From Candidatus Kaiserbacteria bacterium (GTDB lineage: Bacteria > Patescibacteriota > Minisyncoccia > Phycocordibacterales > Phycocordibacteraceae): DNA of 28,839 nt. Below, one piece after another: positions 27,985 through 28,839 of the stretch (positions are counted from its first letter, which is position 1; each line of letters starts with the position of its first letter). Both the position numbers and the translations under genes were made by a program. The stretch is from contig QIHK01000066.1 of the NCBI GenBank assembly GCA_003230945.1, positions 1 to 28,839 on the forward strand, written 5' to 3'. The notes below the pieces were generated by a model. It did not search any database, had not been told where the DNA came from, and saw only the letters and a program-made list of their open reading frames with translations.

Positions 27985-28590
27985 ATGACTTATCCAAAAA
28001 CTGAACGAACACTCGTTATTATTAAACCAGACGGCATTCAACGTACTTTAATAGGGGAAATTATAAAACGGTACGAGCGCGTTGGTATAAAATTAGTTGC
28101 TATAAAAATGCTTCTTCCAACAGAAGAAAAAGTTGAAAAGCACTATTTACTTGATCCCTCTTGGAAGAAGAATGTTGGAGAAAAATCAATTGCGAGCTAT
28201 GAGAAGAAGGGAATAACTCCGCCATCAACCGACCCTATTGCGGTCGGAAATATGGTTGTTGAGAAATTAAAGAAATACTTCACTTGTGGTCCCGTTATTG
28301 CGATGGTTTGGGAAGGAGCACATGTTGTTGAGGTTGTACGTAAAATTACTGGTGGTACGGAACCACGCTCGACCGATGTAGGTACCATTCGTGGCGACTT
28401 TGTACTTGATTCTTATATCATGGCAGATACTGATGACCGTGCTATAAGAAATCTCATTCATGCTTCTGGTACCGTCGATGAATCAGCTGCAGAAATAGCA
28501 CTTTGGTTTACCCCCAATGAAATTATAGAGTATAGCCTCATACAGGAGCAGATTCTCTATGATGTAAATATTGATGGAGTCCTCGAATAA
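27985..28590 (+). CDS. ndk: Nucleoside diphosphate kinase (long form with an internal insertion)
   Basis: ERTLVIIKPDGIQR, GPVIAMVWEG, GTIRGDF and NLIHASG (catalytic His). Confidence 0.95.
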   Translation: MTYPKTERTLVIIKPDGIQRTLIGEIIKRYERVGIKLVAIKMLLPTEEKVEKHYLLDPSWKKNVGEKSIASYEKKGITPPSTDPIAVGNMVVEKLKKYFTCGPVIAMVWEGAHVVEVVRKITGGTEPRSTDVGTIRGDFVLDSYIMADTDDRAIRNLIHASGTVDESAAEIALWFTPNEIIEYSLIQEQILYDVNIDGVLE

Positions 28591-28605
28591 ATAGATATAT
28601 AAAGT

Positions 28606-28642
28606 GATAACGAAGATCCGCGGAAGCGGGTTTTTTGTTATC
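28606..28642 (+). terminator. Intrinsic terminator after ndk
   Basis: gataacgaagatccgc-GGAA-gcgggttttttgttatc, a GNRA-capped stem with a U-tract. Confidence 0.8.
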
Positions 28643-28680
28643 CACCTCTTTTTTTAAGGGGAGTGGAGTATAATCATAGA

Positions 28681-28825
28681 TGGAGCTACTTCGCACGTCA
28701 TGCAACTTGATCTTTTAAAGGGAACTCAATATTCACGCTTGCCTCCGCGAGTCCTTTAGGATTCCATGGCGGCGATGAGAGTACCCACGTAGCATACATA
28801 AGTTGCTATACCCGAAGTAGTTCCA
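28681..28825 (+). ncRNA. ssrS: Probable 6S RNA (compact)
   Basis: TATAAT at 28669-28674, 6 nt before a 13-bp closing stem (28681-28693/28813-28825). Second stem gcaactt/aagttgc, central bubble, then gggaactc/gagtaccc helix followed by CCCACG, and a terminal hairpin tcc-ttta-gga. Confidence 0.6.
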
Positions 28826-28839
28826 GAAAAGCTCCGACT

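Follow-up and report, generated by a model that had tools for sequence, protein, structure and literature searches.

The window analysed here is the whole of a stretch of DNA of 28,839 nt, which fully covers one contig of a 0.57-Mb genome in 76 contigs, and its forward strand ends in the gene of a small structured RNA. We consider it very probable, from sequence comparison, that 28681–28825 forms the rod of this organism's own 6S RNA, an orthologue of ssrS that has diverged from the rest of the family and is shorter. Membership of the family is argued from transitive, sub-threshold and reciprocal matches of covariance models. The RNA is therefore placed as a new divergent member of the known 6S family and not as a new kind of RNA; Rfam already recognises 6S RNA in some Patescibacteria. 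Few global regulators work on RNA polymerase itself, 6S RNA being one of them, and the CPR/Patescibacteria have tiny genomes with few regulators. Among the papers searched, none links 6S RNA with the CPR or Patescibacteria, and the one that mentions Patescibacteria deals with SRP.

Overall structure of the rod

The preliminary description of this DNA had drawn a rod composed of a closing stem (P1), a second stem (P2), a two-sided central bubble, a third stem (P3) with CCCACG on its 3′ side and an apical hairpin, and all of these elements are present where they had been placed. The minimum free energy calculated with RNAfold for 28681–28825 (145 nt) is −55.1 kcal/mol, and the structure with this energy is identical to the rod as drawn. 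Dinucleotide shuffles of the same sequence (n = 200) gave −32.8 ± 3.5 kcal/mol, corresponding to a z-score of −6.3, with none of the 200 folding as well.

In this fold P1 consists of 13 base pairs, one of them G·U, between 28681–28693 and 28813–28825. P2 pairs GCAACUUG at 28702–28709, which is invariant in the genus, with UAAGUUGC at 28799–28806. The central bubble follows, with an A/U-rich 5′ strand, AUCUUUUAAA (28710–28719), and a 3′ strand, ACGUAGCAUACA (28787–28798), the latter aligning to 'CCCACCUgga' of Rfam 6S. The 5′ strand of P3 (GGG-A-ACUC, 28720–28727) holds the GGGAG motif of the 6S consensus and aligns to Rfam 6S positions 59–65, 'GGGagcc'; it pairs with GAGU-A-CCC at 28779–28786, a strand that is part of the CACCCAC motif and is indicated by covariation as well as by the fold. 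CCCACG, at 28784–28789, overlaps the end of this 3′ strand. The rod is completed by P4 and an irregular apical hairpin (28733–28776). The U-rich single strand on the 5′ side of GGGAG is kept throughout the order.

An internal loop, GAUGAG...UUCUGA, flanks the apical hairpin across the order (columns ~75–82 and 104–110 of the order-level alignment; e.g. loci L064, L066 and L073). Its counterparts are GGUGAG...UCCGA in the genus and GCGAG...UUCCAU in the window (28746–28750 and 28762–28767). To judge from the bases involved, the loop looks like tandem sheared G·A pairs or a kink-turn-like box C/D pairing. GGUGAG is presumably also present in E. coli 6S at the position corresponding to the apical internal loop.

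The RNA has its own promoter and terminator signals

The perfect TATAAT that had been reported just before the rod is present at 28669–28674 and, from a reading of the sequence, transcription is predicted to start from it at ~28680–28682. In 55 of 56 homologues a TAnnnT box (mostly TATACT, TATAGT or TATAAT) precedes the RNA by no more than 28 nt, and within the genus the −10 box lies ~6–7 nt ahead of a conserved GGAGC. A simple promoter scan of 28400–28839 gave no −35 hexamer beside the −10 box at 28669–28674 and no −35/−10 pair on the forward strand.

Further upstream, TTATCCACC at 28638–28646 is the window's copy of a conserved motif, TT(T/A)TCCAC(A/C), which recurs ahead of the RNA in many homologues from the genus (L035–L056) and lies 21–23 nt 5′ of the −10 box, a distance too great for a normal −35 element. 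In several relatives TTGACA precedes the RNA gene's −10 box by just 7 nt. The motif and the close TTGACA would represent either an unusual promoter architecture or the site of a regulator.

At the other end of the gene the last 14 nt of the window, GAAAAGCUCCGACU (28826–28839), appear from the sequences of relatives to be the start of an intrinsic terminator that is cut by the end of the contig. The relatives carry GAAAAnCCGC...GCGGnUUUUC immediately 3′ of P1, and a crude test detected an intrinsic terminator in at least 43 of the 56 homologues. A simple scan called no terminator in 28400–28839, including at the hairpin at 28616–28636. Because the window ends inside the 5′ half of the relatives' terminator, the primary transcript would be longer than the rod, ~180–190 nt unless it is trimmed, and 145 nt would be the length of the rod only. 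The compact or 'minimal' RNA of ~145 nt proposed in the preliminary description thus holds for the rod but not for the whole transcript, which probably also bears the terminator hairpin.

There is no forward-strand open reading frame in the RNA region, nor was a tRNA or tmRNA found there. SRP RNA was considered and rejected, there being no match to RF00169 on the region and none genome-wide at E ≤ 0.01, and no SRP motif in the apical hairpin. The possibility that the region is the leader or coding part of a downstream gene failed on three counts: the RNA is flanked by a conserved −10 box and a terminator of its own, the gene on its 3′ side differs among relatives and there is no open reading frame on the forward strand. 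Judged by these signals the RNA is an independent small-RNA gene, separately promoted and terminated.

Genomic context

Towards the end of the window the order of genes is secY, adk, map (Peptidase_M24), ndk and then the RNA gene. SecY is closest, at 82–86% identity, to the proteins of MAGs that bear the label Candidatus Kaiserbacteria (Parcubacteria/Paceibacterota, Patescibacteria). The conserved upstream neighbour of the RNA gene is ndk (27985–28590, forward strand), which encodes a nucleoside diphosphate kinase of 201 aa (Pfam NDK, E 1.3e-36). The 135-position NDK profile is matched by this protein in two stretches, and relative to a typical Ndk there is an insertion that is absent from some genus members (e.g. 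G016, 158 aa). The ndk transcript appears, from the sequence, to end at a terminator-like hairpin with a U-run (AUCCGC-GGAA-GCGGGU, then U6; 28616–28636, forward strand), a hairpin that is covered by weak Rfam matches to terminator-containing leaders.

On the 3′ side of the RNA, many genus genomes have a gene for a β-CASP/MBL ribonuclease, and several have another (membrane) protein. The open reading frame that follows the RNA in many relatives encodes a β-CASP/RMMBL ribonuclease (L003, 12–1421 on the reverse strand, with equivalents in L034–L056). The 6S RNAs of B. subtilis are reported to be matured and degraded by RNase J1, likewise a β-CASP enzyme (PMC10578484). The adjacency of the ribonuclease and the 6S gene may be a coincidence. 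The ribonuclease gene has a −10 box of the TGnTAnnnT type ~7–9 nt before its ATG (L035, L036, L041, L048 and others), and it looks from this spacing to be leaderless, in agreement with the leaderless cassettes noted earlier in the window.

Distribution in the genus, order and class

A BLAST search with the RNA against 60 relatives returned one homologue only, which is likewise located just 3′ of ndk, and when a 26-nt motif was searched for with up to three mismatches in 300 genomes of the order, the window was the sole match. Sequence alone does not carry beyond the genus. Two covariance models were used: R1, made from the genus alignment, and R2, a rebuilt version that draws on 47 sequences of the genus and order and leaves P2 out. 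When 151 genomes from across the order were searched, R1 had full-length matches in 37, one in each save for two in tandem in one genome (G118). In a class-wide sample of 151 genomes R2 matched 54 (~1/3), each of them once, and in the genus it matched 55 of 61 genomes (45 of the 46 of high quality), always near ndk. The RNA lies directly 3′ of ndk in 27 of the 29 genus loci examined. Each matched genome of the genus has exactly one match, except for G010, where there are three; this assembly is 5% contaminated and its matches to ndk also number three. Matches of the models on the antisense strand (21–27 bits) are an artefact of the symmetry of the rod and were excluded.

The tandem genes of G118 are 6S-like and ~200 nt apart (locus L081, G118:C42, 1290–1367 and 1501–1672). 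The upstream copy is the best RF00013 match of that genome, at 26.9 bits (G118:C42:18120–18277), and in the downstream copy the apical hairpin is perfect and very long. The pair recalls the 6S-1/6S-2 paralogues of Bacillus.

Conservation and covariation

Covariation was assessed in a MAFFT alignment of 26 genus sequences that was not fitted to any structure. With the pairs of the rod laid on this alignment, 92% of cells are paired, compared with 36–50% when the 3′ partners are slid by 1–3 columns. Changes on both sides are seen in 17 of 29 pairs, and the observed values were reached by none of 500 shuffles. The compensatory changes fall in P1 (7 of 9 aligned pairs, with 98% of cells paired), in distal P3 (three pairs) and in P4 (7 of 7 aligned pairs). 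Both strands of P2 (GCAACUU/AAGUUGC) are invariant in the genus and, because of this, covariation says nothing either way about this stem. The complementarity of the P2 strands in the genus is non-random (z −2 to −4); outside the genus, in order sequences, the complementarity of the 5′ and 3′ strands does not clearly exceed that of shuffles (mean z −0.7). GGG and CCCAC/CACCCAC are invariant, or nearly so, in both the genus and order-level alignments. The rod and bubble, for which conservation in relatives had been proposed as a check, are thus conserved, with covariation.

Relationship to the 6S family

The 6S family is represented in Rfam by RF00013, which has a gathering cut-off of 46.4 bits. 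The RNA region has no Rfam match at gathering thresholds and, in a search of 340 nt, no 6S match even at E ≤ 10; a search of the window's whole genome with RF00013 likewise gave no match and no second 6S candidate. None of the 151 genomes of the order has a match to RF00013 over the cut-off. For the 6S RNA of the preliminary description, which had named the Rfam model as a check, the outcome on the window sequence itself is, taken alone, a refuting one.

The link to the 6S model is made by the homologues. RF00013 is the sole family that recurs among them, matching 16 of 40 at about 13–35.4 bits, all below the cut-off. These matches comprise 6 of 20 order-level loci, cut to ~160 nt (17–24.6 bits), and 10 of 20 class-level loci, the best with 35.4 bits and E 8e-5 and most with alignments spanning model positions 1–187. 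They have the same strand and span as the R1 and R2 matches, and the best genome-wide sub-threshold RF00013 matches in G118 and G085 coincide with the matches of our own models. The comparison also works in the reverse direction. In a sample of 151 Patescibacteria belonging to other families, seven have an RF00013 match above the cut-off, and R2, the training of which lacked the RF00013-detected Patescibacteria loci, matches 9 of 12 such loci at the same place and on the same strand, four of these (L242, L244, L245 and L248) being above the Rfam cut-off. On the above-cut-off 6S RNAs of Patescibacteria (e.g. L242, L244 and L245) the E-values of R2 range from 1.5e-5 to 7e-3.

The homologues share the core GGGAG...CACCCACCUGG with the Rfam 6S consensus; on the two sides of the central bubble the consensus reads GGGagccc ... 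gggcaCCCACCUgga and the window GGGAA ... UACCCACGUAG. The motif GGGA(G/A)C...CCCAC, which had been put forward as characteristic of 6S RNA, is indeed found in the Rfam 6S consensus. The identification as 6S RNA is supported in that it withstood tests able to refute it, namely those of gene status, of covariation and of homologue and reciprocal model matches.

Alternative explanations

That no RF00013 match in the order or class homologues reaches the gathering score is what would be expected if the RNA were a conserved rod-shaped housekeeping RNA of the CPR and not a functional 6S RNA, having another protein partner, with GGGAG and CACCCACC either retained or convergent; binding to core RNA polymerase in the manner of Ms1 would then be possible. 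We regard this as unlikely. Full-length RF00013 alignments (1–187) put GGGAG, CACCCACCUGG and both stems in register, R2 matches RNAs of Patescibacteria that score up to 73 bits with RF00013, and no other RF00013 candidate was found in the organism's own genome.

It seems more improbable still that the element acts in cis, as a leader or riboswitch-like structure for the downstream gene, which in many relatives is the β-CASP ribonuclease. The position of a β-CASP/MBL RNase gene on its 3′ side in many genus members would agree with such a role, as would the arrangement of a closed multi-helix structure followed by a terminator, which is that of transcription-attenuating riboswitches. However, the terminator stands by itself as a perfect hairpin and offers no competition to P1, and the downstream gene is provided with a separate −10 box, located between the terminator and the ATG. 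Several relatives retain the RNA and ndk but have a different gene (for a membrane protein) at the downstream position, the RNA occurs as a single independent unit in other orders, and the similarity to Rfam 6S also argues against a leader. A chance hairpin, or the functionless relic of a mobile inverted repeat, is suggested by the palindromic look of the 13-bp closing stem and by nothing else; with the z-score of −6.3, the single-copy and syntenic occurrence, and the conservation with compensatory changes in genus, order and class, this explanation has practically no probability left and is already refuted.

A predicted hairpin in the 3′ strand of the bubble competes with P2

An alternative hairpin, H3, can form at 28789–28809 through the pairing of GUAGCA (28789–28794) with UGCUAU (28804–28809), as indicated by forced folds and by order-wide covariation. 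H3 and P2 are mutually exclusive, 28804–28806 being used by both. The window's RNA folds with −54.3 kcal/mol when P2 is present and −52.7 kcal/mol when H3 is forced, a gap of 1.6 kcal/mol. With the 5′ strand blocked in silico, as it would be by a bound pRNA, the window's RNA adopts H3, and so do 23 of 25 genus RNAs.

Among the order's other families a small hairpin, CCUAG...CUAGG, directly follows CCCA in 24 of 29 sequences, and the layout in the 29 order homologues is a closing stem, a long A/U-rich 5′ strand, GGGAG, P3, the apical stem, CACCCA and the hairpin. Across the order the 3′-bubble hairpin covaries, both at position 4 (A-U 12, G-U 5, G-C 5, C-G 2) and at position 6 (U-A 6, C-G 5, A-U 4, G-C 3, U-G 1). 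Its pairs were tabulated by a custom script because both types of alignment are faulty for the order-level sequences, MAFFT placing their closing stems wrongly and the R1-guided alignments misplacing the hairpin.

An outer helix, (A)GGGUU...AACCC(U), is often seen beyond the ends of the model in the other order families (L064, L067, L072, L074, L078–L080 and L092). The 6S RNAs of those families would on this basis be ~160–175 nt long, and the outer helix would have been lost in the window's genus.

In E. coli-type 6S RNA, the synthesis of pRNA opens P2, and nucleotides of the 3′ bubble together with the 3′ strand of P2 form an extended hairpin that drives release, whereas in 6S-1 of B. subtilis the 3′-bubble hairpin is constitutive (PMC8876501). 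In vitro, 6S-1 RNAs truncated so that their arms are short still go through the cycle of binding, pRNA synthesis and release (PMC8876501), which makes a compact natural 6S RNA plausible. Modelling of the window's RNA suggests a competition between the 3′-bubble hairpin and P2 like that of the E. coli-type switch, where pRNA triggers release.

Proposed mechanism

By analogy with the 6S RNAs of E. coli and B. subtilis, we infer that the rod would mimic an open promoter and occupy the active-site cleft of the σ70-type holoenzyme, with P1 standing in for the downstream duplex DNA and P4 and the apical hairpin for the upstream DNA. The genome encodes three genes of the σ70 family, one of them, of 450 aa, of the primary type and the other two shorter. 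On a rise in NTPs, RNA polymerase would copy the 5′ strand of the bubble and the 5′ strand of P2, from ~28712 back toward 28696, into a short pRNA. The product of ~28696–28712 is predicted to read ...AUCAAGUUGCAUG... Its synthesis would free the 3′ strand of P2, allowing H3 (28789–28809) to close with the 3′ strand of the bubble, and the formation of H3 would then release the 6S RNA, an arrangement of the release hairpin that is of the E. coli type. The invariance of ACGCAACUUGC in the genus would be explained by its lying in the presumed template region of the pRNA. Binding to σ70-RNAP, the synthesis of pRNA and the 'global brake for a regulator-poor cell' of the preliminary description are all attributed to this RNA by that analogy.

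A tentative proposal, which we hold to be somewhat more doubtful than secure, is that two changes occurred in the genus: the outer closing helix was lost, and a constitutive hairpin of the B. subtilis type became a switch of the E. coli type, in which one half of the hairpin stays masked by the invariant P2 (GCAACUU/AAGUUGC) as long as no pRNA is made. If this is true, two release mechanisms that were thought to separate bacterial lineages can interconvert within one order, and the whole of the 6S cycle is carried by a natural RNA of 145 nt. It would also make 6S RNA a near-universal core gene of the class, a Paceibacteria-like CPR lineage, that is missed by current annotation.

The type of release hairpin apparently changes within the order. 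A 6S gene would have been kept in the window's lineage although annotation based on Rfam reports none, and a working covariance model together with a fixed landmark, the position 3′ of ndk, can now be used for annotating ssrS in the class. The natural 145-nt rod, with its predicted competition between P2 and the hairpin, would be a handy minimal system for studying pRNA-driven release.

Comparison with known systems

Ms1 RNA of Actinobacteria is also a 6S-like rod associated with RNA polymerase (PMC9130861). It differs in that the core enzyme is bound by Ms1, and it belongs to another phylum; the Rfam Ms1 model has no match on the window region or on the 40 homologues tested. The Patescibacteria 6S RNAs that exceed the Rfam cut-off (L242 with 73 bits, L244 and L245 with 58–59 bits) share the phylum and the core motif with the window's RNA, but they come from families outside its order and, unlike the window's lineage, resemble the Rfam seed closely enough for automatic annotation.

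The 6S-1 RNA of B. subtilis resembles the RNAs of most other families of the order, in which the 3′-bubble hairpin is present in the free RNA (CCUAG...CUAGG after CCCA). It is unlike those of the window's genus, where the hairpin shares nucleotides with P2 and would, by prediction, be the minor state.

With E. coli-type 6S RNA (SsrS, RF00013) the window's RNA has in common the rod, made of a closing stem, P2, a two-sided central bubble and a terminal stem, and the GGGAG...CACCCACCUGG core, which is identical to the family consensus. In both, nucleotides of the 3′ bubble can pair with the 3′ strand of the opened P2 (PMC8876501). Both are also single-copy genes with their own promoter. The differences are that the rod is 145 nt here and ~184 nt there, that the window's sequence falls below any reportable RF00013 threshold, and that the predicted release hairpin has 6 bp and not 9. 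The gene lies 3′ of ndk, whereas that of E. coli is upstream of ygfA, and it ends in an intrinsic terminator, while the 6S RNA of E. coli is processed from a longer transcript.
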